Below are positions 21,900-64,000 of a stretch of 64,000 bases of DNA, in pieces. The notes under the pieces are model-generated. The model saw nothing but the letters and a program-made list of their open reading frames with translations. It was not told the DNA's origin and did not search any database. The translations under genes were made by a program, and so were the position numbers. The DNA is from Chthoniobacterales bacterium (GTDB lineage Bacteria; Verrucomicrobiota; Verrucomicrobiia; Chthoniobacterales; DYNR01), in NCBI GenBank assembly GCA_026418675.1, contig JAOAAX010000005.1:13789-77788 (forward strand), read 5' to 3'. Each line of letters begins with the position of its first letter. Within the stretch, counting starts at the first letter, position 1.

Positions 21900-21934
21900 G
21901 GTAATCTTTGGGGATTCCTTAAGATTTTGTTATT

Positions 21935-23702: not shown

Positions 23703-24097
23703 TTTGTGGATGCAAACATCCATATTTCTTGCTCAAAATGGTCAAGATAAATATCGAGGTTAGAGATAATTTCTTCGTCTAAGAAGGGAGAGGGTGCATT
23801 GAGGGAAGTATTAGGAGATGTAGTGTTGGATGGGGTAGGGAGCTGGGTGATAGCTAGAATTATGGCAAGCAGAGTGCAAATACTAAGAGCAATTGGGGTT
23901 AGCTTTCTAATAAATTCAAAAGTAATTGGTGAAGGAAGTGTTAGCGGTTTTTGGCATGAATCATTTACGTAGTTAAGGGTTTTTGATACAAACCAAGGAT
24001 TTGTAGGGGGTTTTGGAACTAAATCGAGGAGGAGTTCAATTTTGTCTGGAGTTTTAGTTGGAGTTTGAGATGAGGGGGTTTGTTGTTTTTTTTGCAT
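23699..24097 (-). CDS. Single-pass membrane hypothetical protein
   Basis: One TM helix, TPIALSICTLLAIILAITQL. Translationally coupled (ATGA) to the downstream P-rich gene. Confidence 0.45.
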   Translation of the reverse strand: MQKKQQTPSSQTPTKTPDKIELLLDLVPKPPTNPWFVSKTLNYVNDSCQKPLTLPSPITFEFIRKLTPIALSICTLLAIILAITQLPTPSNTTSPNTSLNAPSPFLDEEIISNLDIYLDHFEQEIWMFASTK

Positions 24098-24148
24098 TGT
24101 CCTTTTTAGATAGAAACACCTGTGAACAGGAAAAGTTTTATTAAAAAT

Positions 24149-24185
24149 AAAAAAACTCGGCGCCTGCGAAAAGCAAACGCCGAGC
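24149..24185 (-). terminator. Rho-independent terminator downstream of the porin gene
   Basis: Stem ctcggcg (24156-24162) / cgccgag (24179-24185). On the minus strand it is followed by a run of 7 T (24149-24155). Confidence 0.7.
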
Positions 24186-24225
24186 TTGAATGGCTTTCGA
24201 ATTTTAAGGTTTTTTTTGGTTTGGG

Positions 24226-25698: not shown

Positions 25699-25820
25699 AG
25701 AGTTATGCTTATTGCGGTTTGGGTTAATAATGGTTTGGTTGTTACCAAACGGCCAAAGACTCTATCAGAGGAGAGAAAATGTGCAAGAAAAAAAAGCTTT
25801 TTGACGAAAAGTCAAAAAGA

Positions 25821-26711: not shown

Positions 26712-26783
26712 TTCTGCCCCAATTTCTTCGCTCTTAAAAACTGGAGTAGTGCTATGATCTACTTTTCCACTTCTTAGGGAGCT

Positions 26784-27746
26784 TTAAATTCCCACTGCTT
26801 GCCGAACTCTTAGGATAACGCTTTTTGCTACTTCTCTTGCCTTTTCAGTTCCTTTGCGGAGGATATCCTCGACAAGTCCTGGTTGCTTCTGGAGCTCCTC
26901 TCTGCGCCGTCGCATTGGTTCAAAGTAGTCGAGGACAGCTTCGAAGAGTTGTTTTTTATACTCTCCGTAACCAGTGCCTCCCTGTCGAAACGATTCTTCC
27001 ATTTCCTTTGCTCTATCCTCTCCTGCCACAAGACGGTAGAGCGTAAGCAAAGTTGAACCTTCAACAGGTTTCGGTTCTTCAAGAGGAGTGCAATCTGTTT
27101 TAATACCGAAAATCTTTTTTCTTAACTCCGCTTCTGTTCCGAACAAAGGAATTGTATTTCCGTAACTTTTACTCATCTTTTGGCCATCTGTGCCAGGAAC
27201 GACAGCGGTATCCTCTCGAATTAATGGTTCTGGTAATTTAAACACTGTCCCGAAAGTCTCGTTAAATTTAATTGCCAAGTCCCGTGTGACTTCCAAGTGC
27301 TGCTTTTGGTCGCGACCGACAGGCACCACGTCGCTGTCATAAACCAGAATATCTGCTGCCATGAGGACAGGATACGAGAAAAGCCCATGACTAGCAGGTA
27401 ATCCTTTAGCTTGCTTATCCTTGAAAGAGTGGCAGCGTTCGAGCAATCCCATAGGCGTTACCGTGCTCAATACCCATGCAAGCAAGGGAACTTCTGCAAC
27501 TTCCGACTGTCGGAAAAACGCTGTTCTTTCTGGATTGAGGCCACAGGCTAAAAAGTCCAAGGCCAATTCGTGCACATACTGTCGCAAAGCATCGCCGTTT
27601 CTAACGGTCGTTAGGGCGTGTAAATCTGCTATAAAGTAAAAGGCTTCGCCGCGCTCCTGCAGTTCGATTGCAGGCAACATCATTCCGAAGTAATTCCCTA
27701 AATGTGGAGCTCCGGTTGGTTGAATTCCCGACAGAATTCTCATCAC
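26784..27746 (-). CDS. trpS: Tryptophan--tRNA ligase
   Basis: SGIQPTGAPHLGNYFG (HIGH region) and KMSKS. Confidence 0.95.
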   Translation of the reverse strand: MMRILSGIQPTGAPHLGNYFGMMLPAIELQERGEAFYFIADLHALTTVRNGDALRQYVHELALDFLACGLNPERTAFFRQSEVAEVPLLAWVLSTVTPMGLLERCHSFKDKQAKGLPASHGLFSYPVLMAADILVYDSDVVPVGRDQKQHLEVTRDLAIKFNETFGTVFKLPEPLIREDTAVVPGTDGQKMSKSYGNTIPLFGTEAELRKKIFGIKTDCTPLEEPKPVEGSTLLTLYRLVAGEDRAKEMEESFRQGGTGYGEYKKQLFEAVLDYFEPMRRRREELQKQPGLVEDILRKGTEKAREVAKSVILRVRQAVGI

Positions 27747-27890
27747 TTCTACTGACCCAATTCATTTTTTCTTCTTCTACTTGATATGTCAAAAAATTGT
27801 CTCTTTTAAATAGGATCAGGATTTTCCAATAATGGACATTCAACTCATTTAAAGTGCGTCCCACTTTCTTTACCATTCCGGCATAAATAA

Positions 27891-29981
27891 CTAGTTTCCA
27901 ATTCCTATCTGCTGCCAAAATTCCTCTGCTGTCTGATTTGGGGGATCGCTGGGGCGTCTTATTTTAAAAATGGTTGGCATATATCGCAGAAAAAGCAAAC
28001 GTCTTCGTGCGTCTGCGGCATCGCGTTCGTCCACAATTAATTCCCTGAGAGGGAAGCGCGATATTCCTACGATTGTTCGAAGCGCTGTTCCCGTAATATC
28101 AAGCTTTCTGAGTTTTGGGGCTTTAAGGCCGTTGATATCAACAAGACCTGTATTTGCGAGGTCCAGTTCTTTTAACTCTGGAGTTTGTGGCAGCCAGTCC
28201 AAAGTTTGAAGCGGCGATCCTCGGAGGCTTAGTCGTTCCAGACGTGAAAAGGTTATCTGTGGTTTTGATTCAAGCTGAAGGGTGCTGTCTAGAATTTCGA
28301 GACGTTTTAAGTTTTCGGCGACCAGTAATTCGAGTTGAAATTCCTTTGCTCCCTTTATCGTGAATTCTTTCAAAGGCAAGCTTTTTAATCCTTCCAACGA
28401 CATTTTCCCTGCCTCTTCTATTTGCAGAATCCAGCCATCTTCTTTGACCTCGACTGCAATTCTTGCATTATGCAATTTAGCTTCCTGCCATAGCGAATTA
28501 AATGCTTTTCGGAGCTCTTTTGGGACATGTTCCGGAAGTTGTACAAATGGAGCAATTTCCTCGTTGAGTGGGGCTTGTGTTTCTTGACTATCTATTTCAG
28601 CTTTACTTAGAATCAATTCGCTTTGTGTATCTGTTTGAGGATTAACAAGTTCTTTTATTTCGGATTTTTCTACCGGTGAAATTTGAGATTCGCTCCACTC
28701 CGAATCGTAAGGCGAAGCGTTGGGAGTAGGTTCAGGAGGAGTTAATTCAGTTTCATGGTTTAACGTGAAAGCGTTTTCTGTTAAAAGAGCCTCTGGATTT
28801 GTCTTATTTCCCACAGGGGCTTCTCTTGGGAATGAGGTATTGGAGGATTTGTGGAACCCAAAGTAGTTCTGCAAGATCCCAATACCTCCAAAAACCATTC
28901 CAACCAAAATCAGTGCAGTAACTAGCTCCAAGTTTATATGTTTGGTTTTTTTGGTCCTTCTAGAGGGTATGAGCAGTCCTGTTTTTTCATTTTGGCAGCT
29001 CTTTTTGGCTGTTGCTTGAATTTCTTCGAGCGCTTCAGCGAATTCGATCGCATTTCGATACCGTTTCCGAAAATCCTTTGAGAGGGCCCGCATACAGACT
29101 TCTTCCACATCTTCTCGAATGTTTGCTCGCACTTCGCGGATTTTTTTTCCTTTGTGTGCCTTTAAAAGCTCCAGATCAGTTGGAAGGTTCCCTGTGGCTT
29201 CAAAATACCGCCGTCCTGTTAAAAGCAGGTAGAAAATTGTTCCAAGGCTATAAACGTCGGCCCGCTCGTCCACCCGATCACTATCTTCAGCTTGTTCTGG
29301 GGCCAGATTCTCCGGGGTTCCTATGACTCTCCCGCTTCCTGCGAAAGGTCCTGGATGCCATCCGCGAATCTTTGCTAGGTCAAAGTCCACAATTACAGGG
29401 TAACCATTGCGGTTCAGCAGAATATTTCCGGGCTTTAAATCTCGATGAATCACTCCGCAGCGGTGCACCTTTCCCACTACCTGGCAAATTCTCAACATTA
29501 GGTCCACAGCAACCGCCTCCGGAAAACTCCTTCCAATTTGCGGACGGCATGCAGCCTCGGCAGCTTTTTCTATAACTGACAAATTCATCCATTTTTTTGA
29601 GATTCTCTCGATTAGCTCTTCGAGATGATGTTCTTGGCTTAGTGGAAGCAAGTTTTCCTGAATAGGCTCATAGACGAGATCACCGAGCGAGATTCCCTCC
29701 ACATATTCCAGAGCGAGGTAAACGCAATCCGCTTCCTCCCCAAATTCGACGAAACGGCGTATTCCGGGAAAGTTTAAACGTTTGAGAATTTCTGTTTCCC
29801 ATTGGAATTTCTGGAAGCCTTCCTCGAAATCGGCGCATTCCTTTTGTAGAATCTTGAGCGCCACACTGAATCCGTTTTCATCACGGGCTTTCCAGACAAC
29901 CCCCCTACTTCCTCTTCCTAACTGACCTTCAATCACAAACTTTCCAATTCGACGGCCAATTGGGATTTGTCCATCACTCAC
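27891..29981 (-). CDS. Membrane Ser/Thr protein kinase with C-terminal leucine-rich-repeat domain
   Basis: Kinase motifs VALK, HRDLKPGNILL, DFDLAK and APE. TM helix LVTALILVGMVFGGIGIL. C-terminal LRRs, for example LKELDLANTGLVDINGLKAPKLRKLDITGTAL. Confidence 0.88.
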   Translation of the reverse strand: MSDGQIPIGRRIGKFVIEGQLGRGSRGVVWKARDENGFSVALKILQKECADFEEGFQKFQWETEILKRLNFPGIRRFVEFGEEADCVYLALEYVEGISLGDLVYEPIQENLLPLSQEHHLEELIERISKKWMNLSVIEKAAEAACRPQIGRSFPEAVAVDLMLRICQVVGKVHRCGVIHRDLKPGNILLNRNGYPVIVDFDLAKIRGWHPGPFAGSGRVIGTPENLAPEQAEDSDRVDERADVYSLGTIFYLLLTGRRYFEATGNLPTDLELLKAHKGKKIREVRANIREDVEEVCMRALSKDFRKRYRNAIEFAEALEEIQATAKKSCQNEKTGLLIPSRRTKKTKHINLELVTALILVGMVFGGIGILQNYFGFHKSSNTSFPREAPVGNKTNPEALLTENAFTLNHETELTPPEPTPNASPYDSEWSESQISPVEKSEIKELVNPQTDTQSELILSKAEIDSQETQAPLNEEIAPFVQLPEHVPKELRKAFNSLWQEAKLHNARIAVEVKEDGWILQIEEAGKMSLEGLKSLPLKEFTIKGAKEFQLELLVAENLKRLEILDSTLQLESKPQITFSRLERLSLRGSPLQTLDWLPQTPELKELDLANTGLVDINGLKAPKLRKLDITGTALRTIVGISRFPLRELIVDERDAADARRRLLFLRYMPTIFKIRRPSDPPNQTAEEFWQQIGIGN

Positions 29982-30102
29982 AATTTCAAGCTACCAATCT
30001 TAAAAGATTTATCATCTTCGAAGGAGCATTTGCTCCCCTTCTTCCCTTTCAACACAATTTCAGCTTAAATTCCCGCGATCTCAATCTCTACATCTTCTTC
30101 TC

Positions 30103-30843
30103 ATGCCAAAACTTTCCATCAAACTCGAAGAGCTCGATCAGAACCACCCGATTGAGCAAGAGGAATACAAACGCATCCTGAAAGACTACCAGCTTCGGTT
30201 GCTTGAACGCCAACTTGCTCTAAAAAATACCAAGCGATCTGTTATAGTGATTTTTGAAGGCCCGGATGCTGCTGGCAAAGGCGGGGCAATTAAGCGCATT
30301 GTTGAGCGTCTCGATCCCCGTTATACACGGGTTTATTCCATCGTTAAGCCTACACCTGAAGAATACCAACACCACTACCTTTGGCGGTTTTGGACGAAGC
30401 TCCCCGCATATGGAACTATGGCTATCTTCGACCGGTCGTGGTATGGGCGTGTTCTTGTTGAGCGTGTTGAAGGTTTTGCCACTGAGCGCGAGTGGAAGCG
30501 TGCCTATCGCGAAATCAACGAATTCGAGCGTTGGCTTACCGATGACGGAGCCGGCATCGTGAAAATATACCTCCATATCACAAAAGACGAGCAACTTGTT
30601 CGTTTCCGTGCCCGAGAAGCAGACCCTTACAAACATTGGAAAATTACCGATGAAGATTGGCGCAACCGCAAAAAGTGGGATGAACATGTAAAGGCGGCCG
30701 AGGAGATGTTTGAGCGCACGCATACGGATTACGCACCTTGGCTCGTTATTCCTGCCAATTACAAATGGTATGCTCGGATCGAATCTGTAAAAGCTGTTTA
30801 CGAATGCATCAATCGGCTACTCGAGGAAGAAGACATTGACTAA
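30103..30843 (+). CDS. ppk2: Polyphosphate kinase 2 family protein
   Basis: FEGPDAAGKGGAIKR Walker A and RFWTKLPAYGTMAIFDRSWY; single-domain size of 246 aa. Confidence 0.88.
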   Translation: MPKLSIKLEELDQNHPIEQEEYKRILKDYQLRLLERQLALKNTKRSVIVIFEGPDAAGKGGAIKRIVERLDPRYTRVYSIVKPTPEEYQHHYLWRFWTKLPAYGTMAIFDRSWYGRVLVERVEGFATEREWKRAYREINEFERWLTDDGAGIVKIYLHITKDEQLVRFRAREADPYKHWKITDEDWRNRKKWDEHVKAAEEMFERTHTDYAPWLVIPANYKWYARIESVKAVYECINRLLEEEDID

Positions 30844-31377
30844 TTTCCGGAAAATAAACCTTTCTGCCGGAATTGTTCGAACGAACTCGTTAGATGCGAT
30901 TATTATCTGTCCGAGTTGGGAGAATTTGGCTCAACATCCCATAGTTCCCAGAGAATAAATTCTGCTCATTGGAAGCCAAAGTGGCCGAAATTATCTGAAA
31001 TGGACCAGAAGGCATAGGTGCCAATGTGAGGGTTTTCTCTTTGGTAGGGACTGGAGAAAACCTAAACGCCCTCGCACCTGCCCATGCACTTTGCTTTTTC
31101 GGACACGTTCATCCGGGTTTCTTCACATTCTGCGGATGATGCGGATGACGCCTTGAGCAAACTGCGGCGAGTTCTTCAGTCTTTAGTAATGCGAGGCGCT
31201 CGAACGGTCAGAAGGGCTCATCTTCGGAATCGTTGTTGGAGATGTGTGGATTTTCTATGCCCTTTCCCACTTTGCCGGAATACTTCGCTCCCCCCTCCGT
31301 TTTCTGGTTAAAAAAAATGTGTAAGCACGCTGTAACTATCTCCGGAAGTTAAAAGACTGAATAGGGGGTGATATGCT

Positions 31378-31409
31378 AAAAAAAAAGCGGACTTTAAAGT
31401 CCGCTTTTT
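31378..31409. terminator. Bidirectional rho-independent terminator between ppk2 and tal
   Basis: Stem gcggact (31387-31393) / agtccgc (31398-31404), flanked by an A-run on the left and a T-run on the right. Lies 33 nt past the tal stop. Confidence 0.8.
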
Positions 31410-31441
31410 ATGGAAATAGCAGGTGGTTTCGTGATGTTTGC

Positions 31442-32398
31442 TTACTTTAGTTCTTCTCCAACGAGTTGCTCAAGTTTACGAATATCTGCGGCGAAACGGC
31501 GGATGCCATCGGCCAGCCTATCAGTTGCCATTGCGTCCTCATTGAGCAGCCAACGAAAGTTTTTTTCATCAATTTTAATCTTTTCGACATCAGAGGCTGC
31601 GGCGTCTTCTGGCGAAAGTTTGCGGGTGACGGGGTCTGAGCTGGAGTGGAGTTTTTCAAGCAGCTCTGGACTGATCGTGAGCAGATCGCAGCCGGCCAGC
31701 TCCACAATTTCCTCGGTATTTCGGAAGCTAGCGCCCATGACTTCCGTGGTGTAGCCGAACTTTTTGTAGTAGGAGTAAATTTTTTTGACGGACTGCACGC
31801 CGGGGTCGTCAGCCCCTTTGAAATCTTTGCCAGTTGTAGCTTTGTAGTAATCGAGAATTCGTCCTACGAATGGAGAAATCAACTTTGCACCGACTTCCGC
31901 GCAGGCAACTGCTTGCACGAGCGAAAACAACAATGTCATGTTGCAATTTATTCCCTCCTTCTGAAGGACTTCGGCAGCCCGAACACCTTCCCATGTGGAT
32001 GCTATCTTGATCAGGATTCGTTCGCGCGGAATGCCTCGCTTTTCATAGAGCCCAATTAGTTCTCGCGCTTTTTGAATCGTTCCATCAACGTCAAAGGAAA
32101 GCCGGGCATCTACCTCGGTGGAAACTCGCCCTGGAACGATTTTCAAAATTTCGCAACCAAATTCGACGAGTAAGTCATCAATTATGCGTGCGATTAAGGC
32201 GTCGCGCGTAAGAGGGGAAGTGCGGTTATTGGCGACCGAGCGTTTGACAAGTTCACGATACTCGGGCTGTTGAGCCGCCTTACAAATTAGAGTTGGATTG
32301 GTTGTTGCATCCTGAGGGGAGTATTTCCGCATCGTTTCGAAATCTCCCGTATCTGCAACAACGGTGGTGTATTGCTTCAGCTGTTCCAATTGGTTCAT
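31442..32398 (-). CDS. tal: Transaldolase
   Basis: [38 protein letters not shown]. By alignment to the TalB N-terminus the second Met (32398) is the likely start. The ORF track start is 32440. Confidence 0.93.
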
Positions 32399-32592
32399 AG
32401 GGCTGCTCAAGTTTTTAACATTATCTGACCTATTCTGCAATTGGTTTACTCGGGTTTGGTTTTCCCTTTAATTGGTTCTGTTGGTTAAGGTGCTCTCGAG
32501 AAACGCAGGTGGAATTATTTAGCGGCTTTTTATTTCTAAAATTTCTAAAAATAAGTAGTTTTTTTGATTGGTGGAGATTGGGGAGAGTGCAG

Positions 32593-33033
32593 TCATGAAG
32601 TTATGCGTCGGAGCTCTGCTAGTCGCTTTTGCAAATTTTGCTCAGCGCAATCGATTACTTCCCTTAGTTTTTCGGCGGAGATGCACTCCGCGCCGAAGGA
32701 AGTGACGGTCATGCGCTCCATGCCATCATTGGTTGCAACGATAATCGAGTGTTCCTGAGAATACTTAGCTACCAACCGTTCAATGATTGCGTCTGCTGTA
32801 AGTCCTTTGCGCGAATAAAATACCTGCAATCCTTCCGTGACGTGTTCCGATTGGTTTTTTCCGCCGCTGCCATCAAAAACCAGCACGACGTGAACACCGG
32901 TATTATCGGAGTAACGGAGAAGTAAATCTTTAATTTTCTCTCTTGCACTCAAGCCGCTACGAGCTTGAGCTGCCTTCAGCTCTGGCCAGGCATGAATTAC
33001 GCTATGGCCATCGACAATCAGCACCTTTGCCAT
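32593..33033 (-). CDS. NYN domain protein, YacP-like
   Basis: MAKVLIVDGHSVIHAWPELK N-terminus, typical of the YacP/DUF901 NYN family; 146 aa. Confidence 0.7.
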   Translation of the reverse strand: MAKVLIVDGHSVIHAWPELKAAQARSGLSAREKIKDLLLRYSDNTGVHVVLVFDGSGGKNQSEHVTEGLQVFYSRKGLTADAIIERLVAKYSQEHSIIVATNDGMERMTVTSFGAECISAEKLREVIDCAEQNLQKRLAELRRITS

Positions 33034-33317
33034 ACTTGGAGGTTGGAGGGTATGTTGCTTTATTCTAAAACGAAGCTACAGACGAATCCACAGGAGGTGG
33101 AACCGTTAACGAGGGAGAGTGAGAAGGATGTCTTTTTTTATAGTGCTACTTTAACTTTTAGGGAGAGCCAGAAAATAGGATAAACGACATATTTAAACAC
33201 AGAGAAGAATTAATAATTCTAGCAGCAAACAGTGAAATGGCGAAATTTGTTGATGGAGAAAGCGAACTTTCTTATGAGTTGTAGTGAAAATTGCTTACTG
33301 TAATTTGTTAGTCTTTT

Positions 33318-35309
33318 ATGGGGAAGAGAGAGTTTTCGCCGAGGGACTTGGGTGATTGGTTCCGATTAATACTTGGAGGGAAGCGCTCTCCAACCGATCC
33401 CGGTGTTTTCCATAAACTCTCCCTCATTGCAGTTCTGGCGTGGGTTGGGCTAGGTGCGGATGGTATTTCTTCGGCATGTTATGGGCCGGGCGAGGCATTT
33501 AAGGCTCTGGGGGAACATCAGTATTTGGCAGTAATATTAGCGCTGATGATAGTGGTAACTGTATTTGTCATCAGTGCGAGTTACATGCAAATAGTGGAGC
33601 ATTTCCCAACTGGTGGTGGAGGTTATCTAGTAGCCAGCAAGCTGCTGTCACCACAAGCTGGAGCCATCGCGGGAAGTGCTTTGCTTGTCGATTATGTCCT
33701 AACCATAGCTACTTCAATTGCTAGTGGAATGGATGCAGTCTTTAGCTTGCTTCCAGTTGAATGGAGCGGATTCAAGTTGTGGGTGGCGTCGGCTTTGCTC
33801 CTTGGAATGGTCGTTTTGAATTTGCGGGGAGTGAAGGAGTCAGTAGTGCCAATTGTGCCTGTTTTTTTTCTGTTCCTCTTAACTCACGTGGTTGCTATTC
33901 TTGCAGCAGTAGTTATTAATTTTGATCAATTTGGTGAAATTTTTCGACAATGTGCGGGTGATTTCTCAAGAACAAGGGAAGAAATTGGCTTGATGGGAGT
34001 TTTGGTGCTGCTTCTGCATGCCTATAGTTTAGGGGGAAGTTCCTATACGGGTATCGAAGCTGTGAGTAATAGCATGGGGTCTTTGCGTGAACCGCGTGTG
34101 GAGACTGCGAAGCGGACGATGACGTATATGGCTGTTAGTCTTGCTGTGATGGCAGGGGGGTTGATTTTAGGTTTTCTCCTGATGCGGGTTTCCCAAGGTG
34201 GGGAAGGGAAAACCTTAAATGCTGTTTTTTTTGAAACATTGACGAGAGAGTGGCCTGGGGGAGGAATTTTTTTGACAGTGGCACTAATTTCTGAGGCGCT
34301 TATTCTTCTGGTTGCTGCGCAAACGGGGTTTATGGGAGGGCCGGCTGTTTTGGCTAACATGGCATTGGATCGTTGGATGCCCAATCGCTTTTCGCTGCTT
34401 AGCGACCGGCTCGTTACCCAAAATGGAATTATGGGGATGGGACTTTCGGCCTTCGTTGTGCTGTGGTTAACGGGTGGATTAGTATCTACTCTTGTTGTTC
34501 TCTATGCAATCAATGTTTTTGTTACTTTTTTCCTTTCCCAACTGGGAATGGTGAGGTTGTGGATTAAGTCTCGTTCCAGTGATTCGGCTTGGCTTAAGCA
34601 CCTTATGATAAACGGAGTTGGGTTGGTTTTAACGACGATTATTCTCGTAGCGACGGTATGCTTAAAGTTTTTCGAAGGTGGTTGGCTAACGATTGTGATT
34701 ACAGGAACCCTCATTGGCCTCGCTTTTCTGGTTCGGAAACACTACCGAACCACCCTCTTGGCTCTGAAAAGATTGGATTCGCTCGTTGAGGCAGTTGGCT
34801 CTGCTCAAAATACCGTGGGAGTTGACCAATCCTTGGCCACGGAATGCCCACCCAATGAACGAACTGCGGCGATCCTCGTCAATGGCTATTCCGGCCTGGG
34901 CCTACATTGCCTCTTTCAAGTGTTGAAGTTGTTTCCTGGTCAATTCAAAAATTTTATTTTTCTGCAGGTTGGATTGGTGGATGCTGGTAAGTTTAAGGGA
35001 ATTAAAGACATACAAAAACTGGAAAGAAAGGTGAAGAAGGAATTGGGGCATTATGTTTCTTACATGCGCTCCCAAGGGTTCTGGGCAACAAGCTTTTACT
35101 CGATAGGCAACGATGTTGTGGATGAAGTGGAGCGGTTGGTTATGAAAGTGAACGAAAAATTTCCCAACTCTATGTTGTTTGGAAGCCAGTTAGTTTTTGA
35201 AAAGGAAACAATTTGGACGCGGCTTTTGCACAATTATACTGCTTTTTCGATACAACGTCGGCTTTACCAGCGCGGTTTGCCAATGATCATTCTCCCAATT
35301 CGTGTGTAA
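33318..35309 (+). CDS. APC superfamily permease with a C-terminal cytoplasmic domain of about 200 aa
   Basis: About 12 hydrophobic helices. N-terminal LGADGISSACYGPGEAF resembles the KimA-type motif. A soluble tail follows from about residue 470. Confidence 0.75.
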   Translation: MGKREFSPRDLGDWFRLILGGKRSPTDPGVFHKLSLIAVLAWVGLGADGISSACYGPGEAFKALGEHQYLAVILALMIVVTVFVISASYMQIVEHFPTGGGGYLVASKLLSPQAGAIAGSALLVDYVLTIATSIASGMDAVFSLLPVEWSGFKLWVASALLLGMVVLNLRGVKESVVPIVPVFFLFLLTHVVAILAAVVINFDQFGEIFRQCAGDFSRTREEIGLMGVLVLLLHAYSLGGSSYTGIEAVSNSMGSLREPRVETAKRTMTYMAVSLAVMAGGLILGFLLMRVSQGGEGKTLNAVFFETLTREWPGGGIFLTVALISEALILLVAAQTGFMGGPAVLANMALDRWMPNRFSLLSDRLVTQNGIMGMGLSAFVVLWLTGGLVSTLVVLYAINVFVTFFLSQLGMVRLWIKSRSSDSAWLKHLMINGVGLVLTTIILVATVCLKFFEGGWLTIVITGTLIGLAFLVRKHYRTTLLALKRLDSLVEAVGSAQNTVGVDQSLATECPPNERTAAILVNGYSGLGLHCLFQVLKLFPGQFKNFIFLQVGLVDAGKFKGIKDIQKLERKVKKELGHYVSYMRSQGFWATSFYSIGNDVVDEVERLVMKVNEKFPNSMLFGSQLVFEKETIWTRLLHNYTAFSIQRRLYQRGLPMIILPIRV

Positions 35310-56733: not shown

Positions 56734-57234
56734 ATGGCAGCAAAGAGTGAGCTGGAAACTGTATTGCCGGAAGTTTTCGCAGATTTGGCAGACGTTTTTG
56801 GAAATCCACCTTCGCACGGCTTAGTATTTGGTTTGCTCTTTGCTTCGTCGGAGGCATTGGCGCAGGAACAAATTGCGGAGCGGCTTGGGCTGAGCATGGG
56901 TGCAGTGAGTATGGCGCTCAGAGCCCTTGAGGGGTTTGGCGCAGTAGAGCGACTTTCGAACAATGGCAGCCGCGCACACGCAACTTATACTGCTAATAGG
57001 AATTTGCGACCACTAGTGGTTGGTTTCGTCCACAACCGACTTCGACCAAAGTTGGAAGCAAGTTTAGAAAAACTTGATCGCTTGCAGGAACAATTTTCGG
57101 GGGATGCCCTTAACTCTGATGAGGAAAAGCAGATTCATTTGTTACAAAAAGTGCGCAATTGGCACAAGCGAGCTGTTCAGATCCTCGACTCGGCTGATTT
57201 TTTACTGAACCTTTCTTCAAAAGGTAATTATTGA
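56734..57234 (+). CDS. GbsR/MarR-type winged-helix transcriptional regulator
   Basis: GLVFGLLFASSEALAQEQIAERLGLSMGAVSMALRALEGFGAV. Last gene of normal composition before the AT-rich block. Confidence 0.7.
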   Translation: MAAKSELETVLPEVFADLADVFGNPPSHGLVFGLLFASSEALAQEQIAERLGLSMGAVSMALRALEGFGAVERLSNNGSRAHATYTANRNLRPLVVGFVHNRLRPKLEASLEKLDRLQEQFSGDALNSDEEKQIHLLQKVRNWHKRAVQILDSADFLLNLSSKGNY

Positions 57235-57326
57235 GTTTTTTCTAAGAATCAGTTTCATGATAAGTGGTTTCATGTGGTTGCATGAAGAACCATGTGCGGT
57301 AGCTTTATCTACAAATAAGCTAAAAA

Positions 57327-58094
57327 ATGCGGGAATTGCTGAGAAAATTAATATTTTATTTTGCAAATAAATGTGGTTTAATTGTTAAGCGTAAGAGTCC
57401 TTATAAATATCAAGAGCAAAAGAGTTTCTCTTCAATTATTCCGAGTTGGAATGACTTAATGTTTTCAATTCATGGTAAAAATATTTATGAAGGTTTTCTA
57501 TTTAAGGATTATTTTCCAGATATTGAAGGTTGGTTTTCAACTTCACCTGCATTTGAATACCTATTAAGTTTAGTAAAGCCCAAATTTGTGATTGAAGTAG
57601 GCACATGGAAAGGGGCATCGGCGATTCACATGGCCAGAATTTTACAAAACTGGCACCACGATTTTAGAATTTTATGTATTGATACATGGCTTGGGTCTTT
57701 GGAATTTTGGGAAGATCACTCAGACCCCAAACGCTTTCTCTCTCTTGAATGCAAGCACGGCTATCCTCAAGTCTATTATCGGTTCCTTGCTAATGTTTGC
57801 TATGAGGGGCTTCAAAACCACATCATTCCTTTTCCTTTGCACTCTTCGTCCGCAGCAATTTGGCTGATGCGTAAGGGGGTTGTAGCCGATGCAATTTATA
57901 TAGACGGGAGCCATGAAGAGGAAGATGTTTTTCAGGATATTTTTAATTTTTATCAAGTGACGAAAAAAGGGGGGATTATTTTCGGAGATGACGTTGAGCT
58001 AGCCGGAGTCCGAAATGCTTTAGTAAATTTCTGTAAAATTAAACACATTAATTGGAAACGAAATGAAAATAAGTGGTATTTGACAGTTTCCTAA
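57327..58094 (+). CDS. Class I SAM-dependent methyltransferase (sugar O-methyltransferase-like)
   Basis: VIEVGTWKGASAIHMA (motif I) and AIYIDGSHEEEDVFQD. Confidence 0.72.
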   Translation: MRELLRKLIFYFANKCGLIVKRKSPYKYQEQKSFSSIIPSWNDLMFSIHGKNIYEGFLFKDYFPDIEGWFSTSPAFEYLLSLVKPKFVIEVGTWKGASAIHMARILQNWHHDFRILCIDTWLGSLEFWEDHSDPKRFLSLECKHGYPQVYYRFLANVCYEGLQNHIIPFPLHSSSAAIWLMRKGVVADAIYIDGSHEEEDVFQDIFNFYQVTKKGGIIFGDDVELAGVRNALVNFCKIKHINWKRNENKWYLTVS

Positions 58095-58096
58095 AG

Positions 58097-58945
58097 ATGC
58101 CGAAACTTTTTGTAACAGGGGGGACAGGGTTCCTAGGGGGTTACTTTATAAAGCAGGCATTGAAAGAGGGTTTTATAGTTCGAGCAATTACGAGAAAGTC
58201 ACCGCCGTTTGAGTTGGATCATTTGGAATGGATTTTAGGTGGGCTAGGTGAATATAAGACGGAATGGATGGATGGAATTGATGCAATCGTGCATATAGCT
58301 TCGGCAGGAGTTTCTCCAAAACCAATTAGTTGGCAAGAAGCTCTTCAAATCAACTTGTGTGAAAGTCTTGGCCTTTTTCAATTTGCTAATGAATTAGGCG
58401 TTAACAAATGGGTAGTAATTGGCAGTTGTATGGAATATGGCCTTAGCGGAAACAATTATGAATTTATCCCTGTAGATGCCGAACTCATTCCAGTGGGGCC
58501 TTACGCAACATCTAAAGCTGCTTTTTATCTAACAATTTCAGCATTTTGTCGTGAAAAGCGGGCTTATTTAAGCTATCTGCGTCCTTTTCACTTTTTCGGT
58601 GATGGCCAATACGAGAAAAACTTTTGGCCAAGCTTGAAAGCAGCAGCAATTGCTGGACTTGACTTTCCAATGACTAAGGGTGAGCAAATCCGGGATTTTA
58701 TTTCCGTTCAAGCTGTTGTAGAGGAAGTTCTTCAGCACACCTGCGAATTACTTGAGCTAAAGAAACCGCAAATAAAGATTAAAAATATTGGTTCTGGAGT
58801 TCCGCGAACCTTGCGATCTTTTGCTGAGGAGTGGTGGCATTTCTGGAAGGCTAAAGGTCAATTGCTTGTTGGAGCTATGCCCTATAGAGAAAATGAAATC
58901 TTTCGATTGGTGCCGAATTTAACTCCCAAAGTCATTTTTTTATGA
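58097..58945 (+). CDS. NAD-dependent epimerase/dehydratase family SDR
   Basis: LFVTGGTGFLGGYF Rossmann motif and the YATSK catalytic motif. ATG at 58097, directly after the upstream stop; the ORF track start is 58073. Confidence 0.82.
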   Translation: MPKLFVTGGTGFLGGYFIKQALKEGFIVRAITRKSPPFELDHLEWILGGLGEYKTEWMDGIDAIVHIASAGVSPKPISWQEALQINLCESLGLFQFANELGVNKWVVIGSCMEYGLSGNNYEFIPVDAELIPVGPYATSKAAFYLTISAFCREKRAYLSYLRPFHFFGDGQYEKNFWPSLKAAAIAGLDFPMTKGEQIRDFISVQAVVEEVLQHTCELLELKKPQIKIKNIGSGVPRTLRSFAEEWWHFWKAKGQLLVGAMPYRENEIFRLVPNLTPKVIFL

Positions 58946-59994
58946 AAATTCTTATTACAGGAGGATGTGGATTTTTAGGGTCAAATCTAGCTTTTGAGTT
59001 TCTGAAAAATCAAGAGGAAGTTGTAATTGTTGATTCGCTTTACCGAGTTGGAGGAAAACAAAATCTTGAATGGTTAAAAGCAAATTCCAAGGAAAAGCAA
59101 TTTCATTTCTATCAAGTAGATATTGCTTGCGATAAAGAACTTGAAATGATATTTCAAAGGCATGCCCCTTTCGATTATATCTGTCATTTTGCTGGACAGG
59201 TTGCGATGACCACCTCATTAAAGGATCCTAAAAGAGATTTTCTCACTAATGTTGTTGGAACCTTTAATTTGCTTGAATTTGCTAGAATATATTCTCCGGA
59301 AACTTTTCTTGCTTACAGTTCAACAAATAAGGTTTATGGAGACTTAAATTTCGTAAGATTGCGTGAAACTCCTACTCGTTATGAAGCTGTTGATTTTCCG
59401 AATGGTTTCGATGAGACACTTCCCTTAGATTTTGCTTCGCCGTATGGATGCTCAAAGGGAGCTGCAGATCAATATGTTCGAGATTGGTATCGAAACTTCG
59501 GCATTAAAACGGTGGTTTTTCGACATTCCTCAATATATGGTGGCAGACAATTTTCTACTTATGATCAAGGATGGGTGGGCTGGTTTTGTAAAAAGGCTAT
59601 AGAGCAAAAGAACGCATGGCTAAAAGGTGAAATTCCTGAACCATTCACAATTTCAGGAAGTGGTAAACAGGTCCGAGATGTCCTTCATGCTGAAGATTTA
59701 ATAAACTTATATTTGATGGCATTTGAAAAAAAGGAACAAATTGCTGGCGAGGTTTTTAATATCGGTGGAGGCATAGATAATAGTCTCAGTCTTCTTGAAT
59801 TATTTTCTTTCTTGGAAAATTTATTAGAAATGCCGAAAAAATTAATTTTTAATAGAACAGAAAGACGTAAATCCGATCAGGATTTTTTTGTTTCAAGCAA
59901 TAAAAAAGCAAAGGAAAAGTTAAATTGGGAACCCAAAATTAGGTATATTTGTGGAATTCAAAATGTATTAAATTGGATTAATAATCAAAATTAA
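58942..59994 (+). CDS. CDP-paratose 2-epimerase (tyvelose epimerase)-like SDR
   Basis: ILITGGCGFLGSNLA, AGQVAMTTS, SSTNKVYGD, SPYGCSKGAADQY, VVFRHSSIYGGRQFSTYDQGWVGWFC, ISGSGKQVRDVLHAED. These blocks closely match what I recall of Salmonella RfbE. Confidence 0.8.
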   Translation: MKILITGGCGFLGSNLAFEFLKNQEEVVIVDSLYRVGGKQNLEWLKANSKEKQFHFYQVDIACDKELEMIFQRHAPFDYICHFAGQVAMTTSLKDPKRDFLTNVVGTFNLLEFARIYSPETFLAYSSTNKVYGDLNFVRLRETPTRYEAVDFPNGFDETLPLDFASPYGCSKGAADQYVRDWYRNFGIKTVVFRHSSIYGGRQFSTYDQGWVGWFCKKAIEQKNAWLKGEIPEPFTISGSGKQVRDVLHAEDLINLYLMAFEKKEQIAGEVFNIGGGIDNSLSLLELFSFLENLLEMPKKLIFNRTERRKSDQDFFVSSNKKAKEKLNWEPKIRYICGIQNVLNWINNQN

Positions 59995-59995
59995 A

Positions 59996-61036
59996 ATGCA
60001 TTATATAAATGATATAAAAGAAAAAAAATTTCTTTCCATAGCTATTCCTACTTATAACCGTGTGAATCATGTAAAACAAAGAATTGAGGAATTGTTGCCA
60101 CAATTAAATGATGAAACCCAAATTATTATTTATGACAATGGGAGCGATGAAATAAATGATTTGCTAAAATATATTGATAACAAAAGAGTTTTTTACAAGA
60201 GATCAATATCAAACTTAGGTATGACAGGTAATTTTTTACGTTGCATGACACAGACACTATCTGAATGGATTTGGGTTTTAGGCGATGATGATCCTGTAAA
60301 AGATAATTGTTTAAAAACAATTCTTGGAGTTTTAAAAAAAACAGAAGCTTCAATTGTAAACTTTACAACTGATGCATGCTTTAATAATTCTAATAAATTA
60401 ATATTAAATTTGAGTGAGCTTTTAATGATAAAAGACGTTAGTTCACTGCTGCATTTTTCATCTAATGTTTATAAATTAGAAACTGTAAAAAAAACATTTC
60501 ATGTTCTGGCAACATCATGTTTTACTTATGCTATGCATGTAGTTATAATTACAAAAGCCTTAGAGAATATTCCCGACTGTAAAATGGAATTAAGAGTTGA
60601 AGAAATATTGAAAAAAAACAATTTAAACCCGCGAAGGTGGTCAACGCTTGAAGTTGCCATGGGTTTAAGTGTTTACCCTTGTTTTGTAAACCAAATAGAT
60701 TTAAAAAAAATATGTTCAAATCAACTGAGAGCATCGACGAGATGGATGCTTTTATGGGCGCTTGGGGATATAAAAAATATAAATGAGATAGGCATGTGGA
60801 AATTAGCTGTAAAATTTACAAATAACAATCTTAAAGTATTTGGTTCATCGCTTCTCAATCATTTCTATTATTTTATATCCAAAAATAAAAATTTTAAAGA
60901 TTTTTATAGAGACTTTTTTTTATCAATACTTTTGCTTTTACCAAAAAATTTAATTTACTATATAGCAAAGTATATGAGATCTAGGTTTTTAAAAACAAAC
61001 CAACGAGAATATACTGTTTTAAGTGAATTCAAATAA
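59996..61036 (+). CDS. Glycosyltransferase family 2 (paralog a)
   Basis: LSIAIPTYNR, IIIYDNGSDE, WIWVLGDDDP (DxD motif). Long C-terminal extension ending in VLSEFK. Confidence 0.8.
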   Translation: MHYINDIKEKKFLSIAIPTYNRVNHVKQRIEELLPQLNDETQIIIYDNGSDEINDLLKYIDNKRVFYKRSISNLGMTGNFLRCMTQTLSEWIWVLGDDDPVKDNCLKTILGVLKKTEASIVNFTTDACFNNSNKLILNLSELLMIKDVSSLLHFSSNVYKLETVKKTFHVLATSCFTYAMHVVIITKALENIPDCKMELRVEEILKKNNLNPRRWSTLEVAMGLSVYPCFVNQIDLKKICSNQLRASTRWMLLWALGDIKNINEIGMWKLAVKFTNNNLKVFGSSLLNHFYYFISKNKNFKDFYRDFFLSILLLLPKNLIYYIAKYMRSRFLKTNQREYTVLSEFK

Positions 61037-61037
61037 A

Positions 61038-61793
61038 ATGAATTTAGGTCGTTTCATTTATTTTTCATCTGAATTAATAAATGATTTTCTATTTAGAAGA
61101 AAATTTTTGAAAAATTATTTAAAAAGTTACTTTTATGAAAAATCATTCTCATATCCATGTATAAATTTAGAAACCAAGACAATCGTTGATATTATACCTA
61201 ATGCAGAGGAAGAGTGTGTTAAGCTTTCAGGAATATTTGAAATTCCTAAGTTTCCTTTAGGTATTAAATCCGAGAGATTTTTTACAGCATCAACGAATTT
61301 AGTAGATTCTTTTTGTTTAGCTTTATTTGCTAAAAAATTTGCAAAAGAAAAGATACTAGAAATTGGAACATCTTTTGGAGAAACAGCGTTAACGTTTGCA
61401 TTAAACTCTCCCGAAAATTGTGTCGTTTATACAATAGATATTCAAAATACTTTGAGTAATCCGACGATTGGACGGAAATTTCGTAATAAAAATATTGAAA
61501 AAAAGATTAAATTTTACTCAATGGATATTGAAAGAGTTTTTTCCATTTTACCGCCAAAGTCTGTTGATATAATATTTATAGATGGGGATCATAGTTATGA
61601 AGGTGTTAAGAAAGACACTGAATACTCTTTAAGTTTGATTAAAGATAATGGTATCATAATATGGCATGATTGTTGTGTAATGTTTTTAGATGGCGTTGTT
61701 AAATATTTAGATGAATTGAAAAAAAATAAAAATTTAAAAATTATAAAAATAGCACACACAAATTTAACATTAGGTTACAAAATTGAGATATAA
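61038..61793 (+). CDS. Class I SAM-dependent methyltransferase (second copy)
   Basis: ILEIGTSFGETALTFA and IIFIDGDHSYEGVKKD. ATG at 61038, one nt after the upstream stop; the ORF track uses GTG at 61023. Confidence 0.72.
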   Translation: MNLGRFIYFSSELINDFLFRRKFLKNYLKSYFYEKSFSYPCINLETKTIVDIIPNAEEECVKLSGIFEIPKFPLGIKSERFFTASTNLVDSFCLALFAKKFAKEKILEIGTSFGETALTFALNSPENCVVYTIDIQNTLSNPTIGRKFRNKNIEKKIKFYSMDIERVFSILPPKSVDIIFIDGDHSYEGVKKDTEYSLSLIKDNGIIIWHDCCVMFLDGVVKYLDELKKNKNLKIIKIAHTNLTLGYKIEI

Positions 61794-62787
61794 GTTCAAA
61801 TATTCTGTAGCAATACCAACATATAATCGAAAGAAGGAATTACATCAAACATTAACAATTTTAAATGAACAGTTAGATAAGAATATCAGTATATGGATAT
61901 TCGATAATGGTAGTAATGATGGAACATGTGAATTAGTAAAATCTTTGATCACCACTTTTGATAACAATGTTATTTTAAAGCGTTCACTCCATAATATTGG
62001 CATGCCTGCAAATATTGCAAGATCACTATTAAATACAGACGCCGAATGGATATGGTTGCTGGGAGATGATGATATACCTTTGGAAAATTCAATTCAAAAT
62101 TTTATAAAATTGACTGAAAAGTATAAAAATGGAATAATTGAGTTCAATTCAAGTGGGGGGGCTATTGAAACAGATATTATCATTCAAAACTATGATGATT
62201 TTTACAAATATCATGATTTAGTTAAGACAGTTTTTATATCATCACATATATTTCACAAACCTTCAATAGAAAAATTTTTGGGGATTCTATATTTCGCTTC
62301 CTTTACATTTGCTCCCCACTCTGTTCTTGTTTTAAGGTTATTGGAACATGGTTATGGGAATTTATATTTGGATACTTGCTCATTATTAAAAAGTTTCTAT
62401 CATGCAAAGCGATGGTCAACCTTAGAAGCTGGATTTGGAATAAGTTTACTTCCTGAATTTATATCCAACAAAAAATTTAAAAAGCTTTTTTCACAAAGGC
62501 TTCTTTTAGATTTATGTTGGCAATTAAGCTTTGGGTTAACTGAAATATACGATCAAAAAACGGCTGAGCGTTGGAAAGATACAGTGAAACATGTTTTTGC
62601 AAATCTGAAGAATTATGGTGCAAAAATATTTCCAATAGGAGATAAGTATAGAAAACCAAAAAAAGTTGAAATAAAAGATTTTTTTATTATTGCAATTGCC
62701 CTTGTTTTACCAAAAAAAATATTGTTAAATATAGCTCAAAAATTTAGAGCTAAACATAAAAGAGAGATAGTTTTAAGTGAAAAATAA
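61783..62787 (+). CDS. Glycosyltransferase family 2 (paralog b)
   Basis: YSVAIPTYNR, IWIFDNGSNDGT, WIWLLGDDD, KRWSTLEAGFGISLLPEF, tail VLSEK. Collinear with the gene at 59996. TTG start overlapping the MT stop. Confidence 0.8.
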   Translation: MRYKFKYSVAIPTYNRKKELHQTLTILNEQLDKNISIWIFDNGSNDGTCELVKSLITTFDNNVILKRSLHNIGMPANIARSLLNTDAEWIWLLGDDDIPLENSIQNFIKLTEKYKNGIIEFNSSGGAIETDIIIQNYDDFYKYHDLVKTVFISSHIFHKPSIEKFLGILYFASFTFAPHSVLVLRLLEHGYGNLYLDTCSLLKSFYHAKRWSTLEAGFGISLLPEFISNKKFKKLFSQRLLLDLCWQLSFGLTEIYDQKTAERWKDTVKHVFANLKNYGAKIFPIGDKYRKPKKVEIKDFFIIAIALVLPKKILLNIAQKFRAKHKREIVLSEK

Positions 62788-62805
62788 TTAAATAGTAAGT
62801 AAAAA

Positions 62806-64000
62806 TTGAATAAATCAGAGCGTTTTTTACTCGATACGAGCACAAGAAACCTATTAAAAATAATCTATTCTTTAGGCAATTTTGTTGTCACATGGTGGTT
62901 AGTTCAAAAGCTTGGTGAAACTGGATTTGGGATTTACCGAAGTGCCACTGCTTGCGTTGGACTTCTCAGCATAGCAAGTGGTGGTATGATTTCCGCTGCA
63001 TATGGGATGGTCGTTGAACACATTGCAAAAAATGATCAAGCAAAGGTGGCGGCCGTCGTCTGGCATTCTTTTCGTTTTTTAGGGAAAATTGGGATTGTTT
63101 TATTGATTTGTTCTCTACCTGTTGGATGTCTCATGGCCTTTTTGTATAAGATTCCTGAAGTTGATTTTTGGAATTTTTCGTTAACTGCAGCGATTGCAGC
63201 GGGATCCTTAGTCATGGGCTTTTTTTCAATGCCCTTCATTTGGGTAATACAAGCTAGGCAATTAGAATTTCTATCTAATATACTTCATATCCCATTAGCA
63301 TTTCTAACACCTTTAATTGTTGTTCTATCCTTAAATTGGAAGGCTGAACCTTGGATTCCTTCTTTGTCTACATTTCTAATGGTTTGCATCGGTAATGTGA
63401 TGTGTATAATACTCAGCTTGCACCTCCATCCTTGGTTAAGAAAAAAACATGCAGTTGAAATAAATTTTAAAGAAATTCATTCGAGGACATACTATGGATT
63501 AATGGAACAAATTTCTGCTTCTCTTTTGGCACAATCACTAGCTTGGGGGATCACATCAACCAAAGGCCCAGCGGCATACGGGATGGTAGCAGCATCGATG
63601 ACATTTTTTTCTTTTGCGCGCGATATGTTTTCAACGATATCTTGGACATTAATAGCACCTATTGGAAGTATTTACTATTCTGGAGATCATAAAAAATCAA
63701 TCAAAATTTGGATTGAGGTAACATGTTTTCTCTCTTTTTTATCTGGTGTTTTAGCACTAATATTGTCCGTATATAATTCTACTTTAATATCAATGTGGCT
63801 TGGTCCAGAAATGTCTCTTGGATTAAAAGAGAATGTGGTTTTAGCAATCGGCTTTTTCTTTTCAACGATTCTTTACACTACATCTGCTTCAATTTATGCA
63901 ATAGGTGGTTTAAAAATTCGCGCATGGTTTTTTGTTGCTGAATGTGTAATTTCTATCATTTCAATATGGTATTCTTCAAAGTTCTATGGAATTTTTGGTG
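62806..64000 (+). CDS. Wzx-like polysaccharide flippase (MOP superfamily), 3'-truncated by the window edge
   Basis: Absent from the ORF track because no stop is reached. My hand translation from TTG 62806 (preceded by an in-frame TAA at 62800) stays open for 398 codons. It is very hydrophobic (for example LLKIIYSLGNFVVTWWLV, IGIVLLICSLPVGCLMAF, VLALILSVYNSTLISMWLG). The position fits a glycan cluster. Confidence 0.6.
   Translation, partial: MNKSERFLLDTSTRNLLKIIYSLGNFVVTWWLVQKLGETGFGIYRSATACVGLLSIASGGMISAAYGMVVEHIAKNDQAKVAAVVWHSFRFLGKIGIVLLICSLPVGCLMAFLYKIPEVDFWNFSLTAAIAAGSLVMGFFSMPFIWVIQARQLEFLSNILHIPLAFLTPLIVVLSLNWKAEPWIPSLSTFLMVCIGNVMCIILSLHLHPWLRKKHAVEINFKEIHSRTYYGLMEQISASLLAQSLAWGITSTKGPAAYGMVAASMTFFSFARDMFSTISWTLIAPIGSIYYSGDHKKSIKIWIEVTCFLSFLSGVLALILSVYNSTLISMWLGPEMSLGLKENVVLAIGFFFSTILYTTSASIYAIGGLKIRAWFFVAECVISIISIWYSSKFYGIFG

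Follow-up and report, generated by a model that had tools for sequence, protein, structure and literature searches.

An AT-rich block reads as an operon-like glycan assembly locus

We analyzed a 64,000-nucleotide stretch of a Chthoniobacterales (Verrucomicrobiota) metagenome-assembled genome, or MAG, from an uncultured bacterium of soil type (contig JAOAAX010000005.1, positions 13,789 to 77,788; hereafter, the window), and found that its right-hand end, positions 57235-64000, reads as an operon-like glycan assembly locus, in kind an ordinary low-GC glycan locus. We consider it likely that this block is the 5′ part of a surface-glycan operon of the lipopolysaccharide (LPS) O-antigen/outer-core or exopolysaccharide type, carried on the core chromosome of the MAG. 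Seven genes are packed tightly on the + strand in the order MT1-SDR1-TyvE homologue-GT2a-MT2-GT2b-membrane protein, that is, two methyltransferases, two short-chain dehydrogenases/reductases (SDRs), two family-2 glycosyltransferases (GT2s), and a membrane protein:

57327..58094, + strand: MT1, class I S-adenosylmethionine (SAM)-dependent methyltransferase (Pfam PF13578, PF04989; MCX7712679.1)
58097..58945, + strand: SDR1, extended SDR of 282 amino acids (Pfam Epimerase, GxxGxxG and YxxxK motifs; MCX7712680.1)
58942..59994, + strand: CDP-tyvelose (CDP-paratose) 2-epimerase homologue, TyvE family, SDR1E (homology to PDB 9RL0 and 1ORR)
59996..61036, + strand: GT2a, family-2 glycosyltransferase (PF00535)
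61023..61793, + strand: MT2, class I SAM-dependent methyltransferase (PF13578, PF01596; MCX7712683.1)
61783..62787, + strand: GT2b, family-2 glycosyltransferase, GT-A fold (PF00535, AlphaFold2 model)
62806..64000, + strand: predicted MOP/PST (Wzx-like) flippase, N-terminal 398 of 508 residues (MCX7712685.1, hhalign)

A first-pass annotation of this DNA had described the block as a glycan assembly line, and the single tight array with its two GT2s and two SDRs does read as an operon-like locus of that kind. The proposed order also stands: Pfam gave methyltransferase-SDR-SDR-GT2-methyltransferase-GT2 for the first six genes, and the flippase in seventh place came from profile-profile comparison. 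Using the probable starts, we found that neighboring genes overlap by up to 11 nt or stand up to 18 nt apart, which refines the earlier figure of overlaps or 1-20 nt spacings. Of the TTG and GTG starts that had been proposed, TTG is the sole possible one for GT2b (61783) and for the flippase gene (62806), but GTG 58073 is probably artefactual, a product of open reading frame (ORF) extension; SDR1 starts at ATG 58097 (MPKLFVTGG), in agreement with the NCBI protein and with its homologues. For MT2, NCBI uses GTG 61023, and ATG 61038 is an alternative. From 56734 onward, the proteins of the window correspond to an unbroken series of NCBI entries, MCX7712678-MCX7712685 (locus tags N2035_03285 to N2035_03320).

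The last gene encodes a predicted divergent Wzx-type flippase

As had been noted, the reading frame from 62806 is open to the end of the window; its translation matches residues 1-398 of the 508-amino-acid NCBI protein MCX7712685.1 ("hypothetical protein N2035_03320") with 100% identity. This protein has no Pfam match even at E ≤ 10 and no NCBIfam match, and searching the PDB with a profile built from the flippase alignment returned nothing. When 1.84 billion representatives were searched exhaustively with a profile, only six further clusters appeared at E < 1e-30 (about seven clusters at E < 1e-10 in all), together with ~160 weak full-length matches of ~500 amino acids. Five of the weak matches were scanned for domains; four of them have Polysacc_synt, Polysacc_synt_3, and MatE, and one of these four has MurJ in addition. 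When the close clade was compared with Polysacc_synt-bearing proteins by hhalign, the profiles aligned over 505 columns with 100% probability (E 3.4e-43), which identifies the 62806 product, at the level of sequence profiles, as a predicted divergent flippase of the MOP/PST (Wzx) type. The Wzx-like character claimed in the first-pass annotation thus emerged only through the exhaustive profile search and the profile-profile comparison.

The protein is like known MOP/PST flippases (Wzx; PF01943/PF13440) in its length of ~500 amino acids, its all-helical nature, its full-length homology, and its place in a glycan cluster. Unlike them, it reaches no Pfam or NCBIfam threshold and belongs to a small clade of ~7 clusters. 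Its closest homologue (47-52% identity) is encoded in L001, one of the metagenomic loci, L001-L017, that we compared with the window, on a contig with a G+C content of 0.33. For all of these loci, percentages are identities with the corresponding window protein.

SDR1 and the TyvE homologue point to a CDP-activated sugar

The product of 58942..59994 is a clear homologue of cytidine diphosphate (CDP)-tyvelose 2-epimerase and is predicted to be a C-2 epimerase acting on a CDP-sugar. Over its full length, it matched TaTyvE of Thermodesulfatator atlanticus (PDB 9RL0; E 4.7e-131, 440 bits), its best solved relative, and Salmonella TyvE (1ORR; E 7e-110, 370 bits). In the alignment, it keeps the NAD-binding GxxGxxG, YxxxK, TNK, VAM, YDQGW, and Gln205-loop segments (PMC13098431). 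Proteins in L006, L011, L013, and L017 are 59-62% identical to it. The window protein differs from TaTyvE in being embedded in a glycosyltransferase/flippase cassette with a partner SDR, and in that its activity is a predicted one.

SDR1 matched the Pfam Epimerase family (E 4e-24). Its identity is 46-49% to the SDR encoded ahead of TyvE in L006, L011, and L013, and 28-32% to SDRs adjoining rfbF/rfbG/rfbH on Bacillus and Azospirillum plasmids, one of which is annotated as a CDP-abequose synthase. Its nearest solved relatives, at a weak E of 4e-12, are nucleoside diphosphate (NDP)-sugar 4-epimerases. We suggest that SDR1 is probably an enzyme of the paratose/abequose-synthase type that reduces an NDP(CDP)-4-keto-(di)deoxyhexose. 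Taken together, the type of SDR1 and the TyvE homologue beside it point to a CDP-activated hexose or deoxyhexose.

TaTyvE interconverts CDP-glucose and CDP-mannose (PMC13098431, PMC7851689). The window homologue might do this alone, in which case the glycan would be built of ordinary (methylated) hexoses, without a 3,6-dideoxyhexose such as paratose or tyvelose; we regard this as possible but somewhat unlikely. The higher score to TaTyvE than to Salmonella TyvE favors it, as does the retention of the TNK, VAM, and Gln205 segments for glucose/mannose handling (PMC13098431), but the same segments are conserved in Salmonella TyvE and do not discriminate between substrates. Neither the window nor the conserved core of the cassette described below was found to contain rfbF, rfbG, rfbH, or rfbI, and a tblastn search of the window with RfbF found no homologue, just a weak N-terminal match to RmlA. 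Because rfbF/G/H are not in the window, its genes do not separate a 3,6-dideoxyhexose from plain mannose/glucose. On the other side, SDR1 always adjoins TyvE and fits CDP-4-keto-deoxyhexose reductases in size and type, the rfbS-rfbE pairing of Salmonella being the classical analogue; genes for a DegT-family protein and dTDP_sugar_isom lie upstream in L013, and L001 has rfbF. We found no paper linking Verrucomicrobia to tyvelose or paratose. Elsewhere in the window, genes for RmlA (NTP_transferase) and RmlD lie at 20976-22834 on the - strand, at host-like G+C and 35 kb upstream of the block, and dTDP-rhamnose (the deoxythymidine diphosphate sugar) may be available in the host.

Two paralogous glycosyltransferases and two barely related methyltransferases

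Both glycosyltransferases matched PF00535 (GT2a, E 1.3e-19; GT2b, E 2.4e-18), and they are paralogues, with 32% identity to each other over their full length. GT2a is 39-44% identical to the second cassette GT2 of L006, L011, and L013. GT2b is the transferase most consistently linked to TyvE: its homologues (39-44% identity) adjoin TyvE and/or the flippase in L006-L009, L011, L013, and L017, and its top matches, from metagenomes, are at most 44% identical. The AlphaFold2 model of GT2b (predicted local distance difference test score, pLDDT, 91.5) has a GT-A fold with a helical C-terminal domain and an invariant GDDD motif (D95-D96-D97); the nearest PDB folds are TarP, TarS, WrtF, and RmlT. TarP and TarS, GT2s of wall teichoic acid, resemble the model in fold (Foldseek E 1e-10, TM-score ~0.6-0.66), in the DxD motif, and in the helical C-terminal domain, but they differ in organism and acceptor context, and at 15-16% identity the resemblance is one of fold only. 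On account of a hydrophobic helix at the C terminus, we also considered the GT2s as polyprenyl-phosphate glycosyltransferases (GtrB/ArnC-like) and rejected this, since the model best fits the soluble TarP/TarS type.

MT1 matched PF13578 (Methyltransf_24) at 1.6e-14 and, weakly, PF04989 (CmcI/rhamnosyl O-methyltransferase) at 1.4e-6; it has no PDB relative by sequence. MT2, whose gene lies between the two GT2 genes, matched PF13578 at 1e-17 and PF01596 at 9e-9, and is of the Methyltransf_24/cation-dependent O-methyltransferase type, with weak PDB matches only, to CCoAOMT-like O-methyltransferases. The two are barely related to each other, and neither has a homologue in any related locus that we compared, so that both are specific to this copy. 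They share superfamily models with sugar O-methyltransferases of the CmcI/TylF/CCoAOMT group, such as the mycobacterial rhamnosyl O-methyltransferase, but MT1 scored 27.9 bits against the rhamnosyl O-methyltransferase equivalog NCBIfam NF045824, far below its cut-off of 400. The methylated glycan of the first-pass annotation is therefore upheld as to the presence of two class I SAM methyltransferases; that they methylate sugar hydroxyls is suggested by matches at superfamily level only (Methyltransf_24, RMNT_CmcI, TylF, and Methyltransf_3). Methylation recurs among the related loci through unrelated enzyme families (FkbM, Methyltransf_11).

A five-gene cassette recurs in other metagenomic lineages

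The related loci are arranged as follows:

L006: SDR1 (47%) - TyvE (61%) - small 23S_IVP gene - GT2b-like (43%) - GT2a-like (42%) - flippase (35%) - GT2
L011/L012, left part: MarR-like (38%) - IVP - Glf - epimerases - GT4 - SDR1 (46%) - TyvE (60%)
L011/L012, continuing after TyvE: GT2b (42%) - GT2a (39%) - flippase (31%) - GT2 - GT2 - GT9 - GT9 - GT4
L013/L014: SDR1 x2 - TyvE (59%) - GT2b (39%) - GT2a (44%) - Polysacc_synt flippase - GT2 - GT4 - MBOAT - GT9
L017: TyvE (62%) - GT2b (43%)
L002/L003: SDR1 (48%) - amine oxidase - GT2 (30%) - flippase (42%) - GT2 - GT9
L007-L010: GT2b-like - flippase - GT2 - GT2 - GT9 - Methyltransf_11 - GT4 ... Wzy_C
L001 (closest flippase): FkbM methyltransferase, GT9, 500-amino-acid membrane protein, GT4, RfbF

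SDR1, TyvE, two GT2s, and the flippase form the core cassette. All five genes recur in three other metagenomic lineages (L006, L011/L012, and L013/L014), and partial cassettes are present in L002/L003, L007-L010, and L017; a single metagenome scan yielded relatives at just 31-35%. The RfbF of L001 is genuine, being 67% identical to Azospirillum rfbF. Two of the cassette lineages are linked to Verrucomicrobiota: this MAG by annotation and L011 by its flanking MarR-like homologue. The related loci often carry GT9 and, in one case (L008), a Wzy_C protein; GT4, FkbM, Methyltransf_11, and MBOAT also occur. GT9 is the heptosyltransferase family, and its presence together with Wzy_C points to LPS-type glycans.

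That evidence bears on whether the product might be something other than an O-antigen or exopolysaccharide, namely a protein O-/N-glycan, the decoration of another wall polymer, or a glycolipid. We judge this unlikely. In fold, GT2b comes nearest to GT2s that decorate polymers (the teichoic-acid enzymes TarP/TarS), MOP flippases serve many lipid-linked glycans, and wzy and wzz were not seen in the window; yet a fold likeness with a TM-score of ~0.6 and 15% identity establishes only a GT2 of the GT-A fold, and the GT9 and Wzy_C proteins of the related loci speak for LPS.

The loci also differ in accessory genes. In L002 (3156-6351), the gene for a 452-amino-acid amine-oxidase/NAD_binding_8 flavoprotein separates that for the SDR1 homologue from the GT2-flippase pair, and a UDP-galactopyranose mutase (GLF; UDP, uridine diphosphate) stands at the head of the L011 locus. 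Small 23S_rRNA_IVP (four-helix-bundle) genes lie in or at the head of L004 (1005-1451), L006 (2326-2688), L011 (956-1342), and L002 (15824-16180). The window copy is without such a gene. Among the sugar genes of L013 lie antitoxin genes of the MazE and Phd types.

A proposed assembly pathway and its relation to known systems

In the pathway that we propose for the surface glycan, a CDP-hexose would first be made from glucose-1-phosphate by a cytidylyltransferase, with dehydratases if the sugar is a deoxy sugar; these genes are not in the window. SDR1 would then reduce a 4-keto group, and the TyvE homologue would invert C-2. On the cytoplasmic face, the GT2s would transfer these sugars to a lipid-linked acceptor, MT1 and MT2 would methylate sugar hydroxyls, and the flippase would carry the lipid-linked unit across the inner membrane, to be polymerised or ligated by the products of genes beyond the window. 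The first-pass annotation had proposed a Wzx/Wzy-type polysaccharide. The Wzx-like flippase agrees with this; the Wzy part would rest on the related loci, which carry Wzy_C and GT9 genes. We rejected export through an ABC transporter with methyl capping of the chain end, as the locus has a MOP flippase and the window encodes no ABC transporter.

Several observations weigh against the surface-glycan reading. The 64-kb window contains no wzy, wzz, or priming transferase, and no cytidylyltransferase, CDP-glucose dehydratase, or ddhC/D; because these pathway genes are missing from it, we infer both the identity of the sugar and the Wzy-dependent route. SDR1 is just ~29% identical to the reference reductases. 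A deoxy sugar is not required in any case, since TaTyvE-type enzymes use CDP-glucose itself (PMC7851689, PMC13098431). The substrates of MT1 and MT2, which would be sugars, are not fixed by the family matches. The AlphaFold model of the flippase, built from a two-sequence alignment, was unusable (pLDDT 40.6). Lastly, the source is a MAG, so that misbinning or a chimeric boundary is possible, although the junction is continuous within one 123-kb contig.

The rfb clusters of Salmonella group D and Yersinia pseudotuberculosis have the order rfbS(prt)-rfbE(tyv)-rfbX(wzx)-rfbV(wbaV) and form a low-GC block in a higher-GC chromosome. The window locus resembles these Salmonella enterica group D and Y. 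pseudotuberculosis clusters in having a short SDR reductase directly followed by TyvE, then GT2s and a Wzx-type flippase in a low-GC block. It is unlike them in that ddhA-D (rfbF/G/H/I) are not adjacent and SDR1 is distant from the abequose/paratose-type reductases; it also has two paralogous GT2s, two methyltransferases, a flippase unseen by Pfam, and a Verrucomicrobiota host. The locus changes no general concept and conforms to the familiar picture of low-GC, hypervariable glycan loci. Since the surface glycans of Verrucomicrobiota have hardly been studied, an ordinary locus is useful too, and this one offers as handles a TyvE-type C-2 epimerase homologue, accompanied by two dedicated GT2s and a reductase that is its conserved partner, as well as a flippase clade missed by Pfam and NCBIfam.

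The composition changes sharply at the left boundary

The G+C content is 0.492 over positions 1-57234 and 0.328 over 57235-64000. By maximum likelihood (40-64 kb scanned), the change point lies at 57196, with a log-likelihood ratio of 316 and just 39 nt from the 57234 boundary drawn in the first-pass annotation, whose spot counts of G+C (16/60, 21/60, and 33/60) were all exact on recount. The shift is also real in sliding windows: G+C per kb is 0.43-0.56 over 1-57 kb and then 0.38, 0.40, 0.34, 0.27, 0.26, 0.31, and 0.36, and no 1-kb window upstream falls below 0.417, compared with 0.25-0.41 in the AT-rich block. Within the block, we observed three sub-blocks, of ~0.38 (57.2-59.7 kb), ~0.27 (59.7-62.9 kb), and ~0.37 (62.9-64 kb).

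The shift reaches all three codon positions. G+C at third positions (GC3) is 0.17-0.34 in the block genes versus 0.41-0.49 in five upstream genes, and G+C at first and second positions (GC1, GC2) is lower as well. Phe, Tyr, Met, Ile, Asn, and Lys (FYMINK) make up 36% of residues in the block proteins versus 21% upstream; given this rise and the fall of GC1 and GC2, much of the shift is one of amino-acid composition. The change toward AAA/AAT/ATT/TTT-rich codons that had been reported is present (AAA rises from 16 to 58 per 1000, and GC3 is lower) but largely reflects amino-acid composition. The synonymous change is limited mainly to the AAA/AAG and GAA/GAG pairs, because the host already favors T-ending codons.

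A probable fixed glycan site with variable, AT-rich content

On the left flank, trpA, yjbQ, and a gene for a GbsR/MarR-like regulator precede the AT-rich cluster. We found no integrase or transposase ORF in 53.7-64 kb and no repeat at the left edge, and the nearest tRNA gene is at 43414, in line with the earlier remark that an integrase, a transposase, a tRNA gene, and direct repeats are all missing there. Relatives have comparable arrangements. In L004 and L011, a homologue of the MarR-like protein (53% and 38%, respectively) is followed directly by polysaccharide genes. The closest relative, L005, has trpA (69%), yjbQ (78%), and marR (61%) and ends ~220 nt after marR; just downstream of this MarR-like gene, over its last 200 nt, its G+C drops from 0.65 to 0.40 and then 0.34. 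L001, with a G+C of 0.33, is a separate contig from the same sample as L005.

The most economical reading of these data is an old, fixed glycan site with AT-rich and variable content, as in classical O-antigen loci. We infer that low G+C is here the usual property of hypervariable glycan loci, with the site being old in the lineage and its content being exchanged or fast-diverging. The first-pass annotation had instead proposed acquisition from a low-GC donor. As a recent event, the transfer of a block of 6.8 kb or more that has not yet ameliorated seems to us rather improbable, though several observations would fit it: the contrast in G+C (0.33 versus 0.49), with GC1, GC2, and GC3 all shifted and amino-acid composition AT-driven; the three compositional sub-blocks, suggestive of a mosaic; and the host-like G+C (~0.52) of the cassette in L006, L011, and L013, which shows that low G+C is not intrinsic to these genes. 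All seven block proteins are, moreover, singleton clusters at 90% identity, whereas the MarR-like protein also occurs in a second MAG. Against recent transfer stand the lack of any mobility signature at the left edge and the polysaccharide loci at the same position in L004 and L011. The L005 G+C drop just after the MarR-like gene and a conserved 12-mer in the leader (see below) also oppose it, so that the alternative of AT-rich clusters shared with relatives, raised in the first-pass annotation, is found in part. The closest flippase comes from the sample that gave L005 and is itself on a contig of low G+C, and no named low-GC donor emerges, the top matches of GT2b staying within the identity range given above. 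Acquisition from a low-GC donor was thus not shown.

We consider it highly improbable that the block belongs to another organism and was mis-joined at ~57.2 kb by assembly or binning. The composition change is very sharp, and the contig of a second Chthoniobacterales MAG (NZL93_00305, 4826 bp), which encodes the identical N-terminal 116 residues of the MarR-like protein (window 56734-57081), stops inside that gene, ~150 nt before the AT-rich block; this break hints at strain variation or at loss of the island in assembly or binning. In the window, however, the junction lies within a continuous 123,004-bp contig, with co-oriented genes and a 92-nt leader between them; the independent assembly of L005 shows both the leader motif and the drop in G+C, and relatives have glycan loci at the same site. 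A fixed trpA-yjbQ-marR site with varying glycan loci could serve strain typing and studies of phage and predation ecology in soil and freshwater metagenomes.

The regulator gene and leader at the left edge

Two further features occupy the boundary:

56734..57234, + strand: GbsR/MarR-like winged-helix regulator (weak winged helix-turn-helix matches; MCX7712678.1)
57235..57326, + strand: leader between the regulator gene and MT1 (hairpin 57271-57296, 12-mer 57295-57306)

The regulator gene has a host-like G+C of 0.48, and its product has weak winged helix-turn-helix matches in Pfam (MarR, DprA_WH) and NCBIfam (CudC, MarR_EPS). With homologues in L005, L004, and L011, the regulator is a conserved feature immediately to the left of the locus, and it may regulate the glycan cluster.

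The 92-nt leader, which begins just downstream of the change point, contains a perfect 9-bp hairpin and the 12-mer TGCGGTAGCTTT. The 12-mer is identical in the orthologous L005 leader (1824-1864), where another perfect 9-bp hairpin sits just 5′ of it. A single occurrence in the window compares with 0.76 expected by chance, so that only its conservation is notable. The ops element has the core GGCGGTAGnnTG. Of that element, only the core GCGGTAGC, which we take to be that of the enterobacterial ops/JUMPstart element, is present in the leader, and it is conserved between the window and L005. Rfam gave no match at E ≤ 10, including JUMPstart, in the window or the L005 leader, and the leader was rejected as a JUMPstart RNA on this ground. 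We found no consensus promoter or terminator in 57235-57326. In L011, a GCTACC..GGTAGC palindrome lies directly 3′ of the MarR-like gene.

A bolder proposal would make the cassette an undescribed glycan module of uncultured lineages, with a new Wzx clade, a CDP-derived, C-2-epimerised (deoxy)hexose, two recruited methyltransferases, and a hairpin-GCGGTAGC ops-like site for a NusG-paralogue antiterminator outside Proteobacteria. We regard this combination as speculative and improbable.

The remainder of the window

The rest of the window is core genome (FolD, CdsA, Dxr, PGK, GAPDH, AccA, PtsI, RF, TrpA, and YjbQ). A milder low-GC stretch at 23000-34000 (0.43-0.46 versus ~0.50) has no obvious island features; its genes encode an OprB-type porin, a squalene/phytoene synthase, a TrpS/TyrS-class tRNA synthetase, a Ser/Thr kinase with leucine-rich repeats, PPK2, and a transaldolase.

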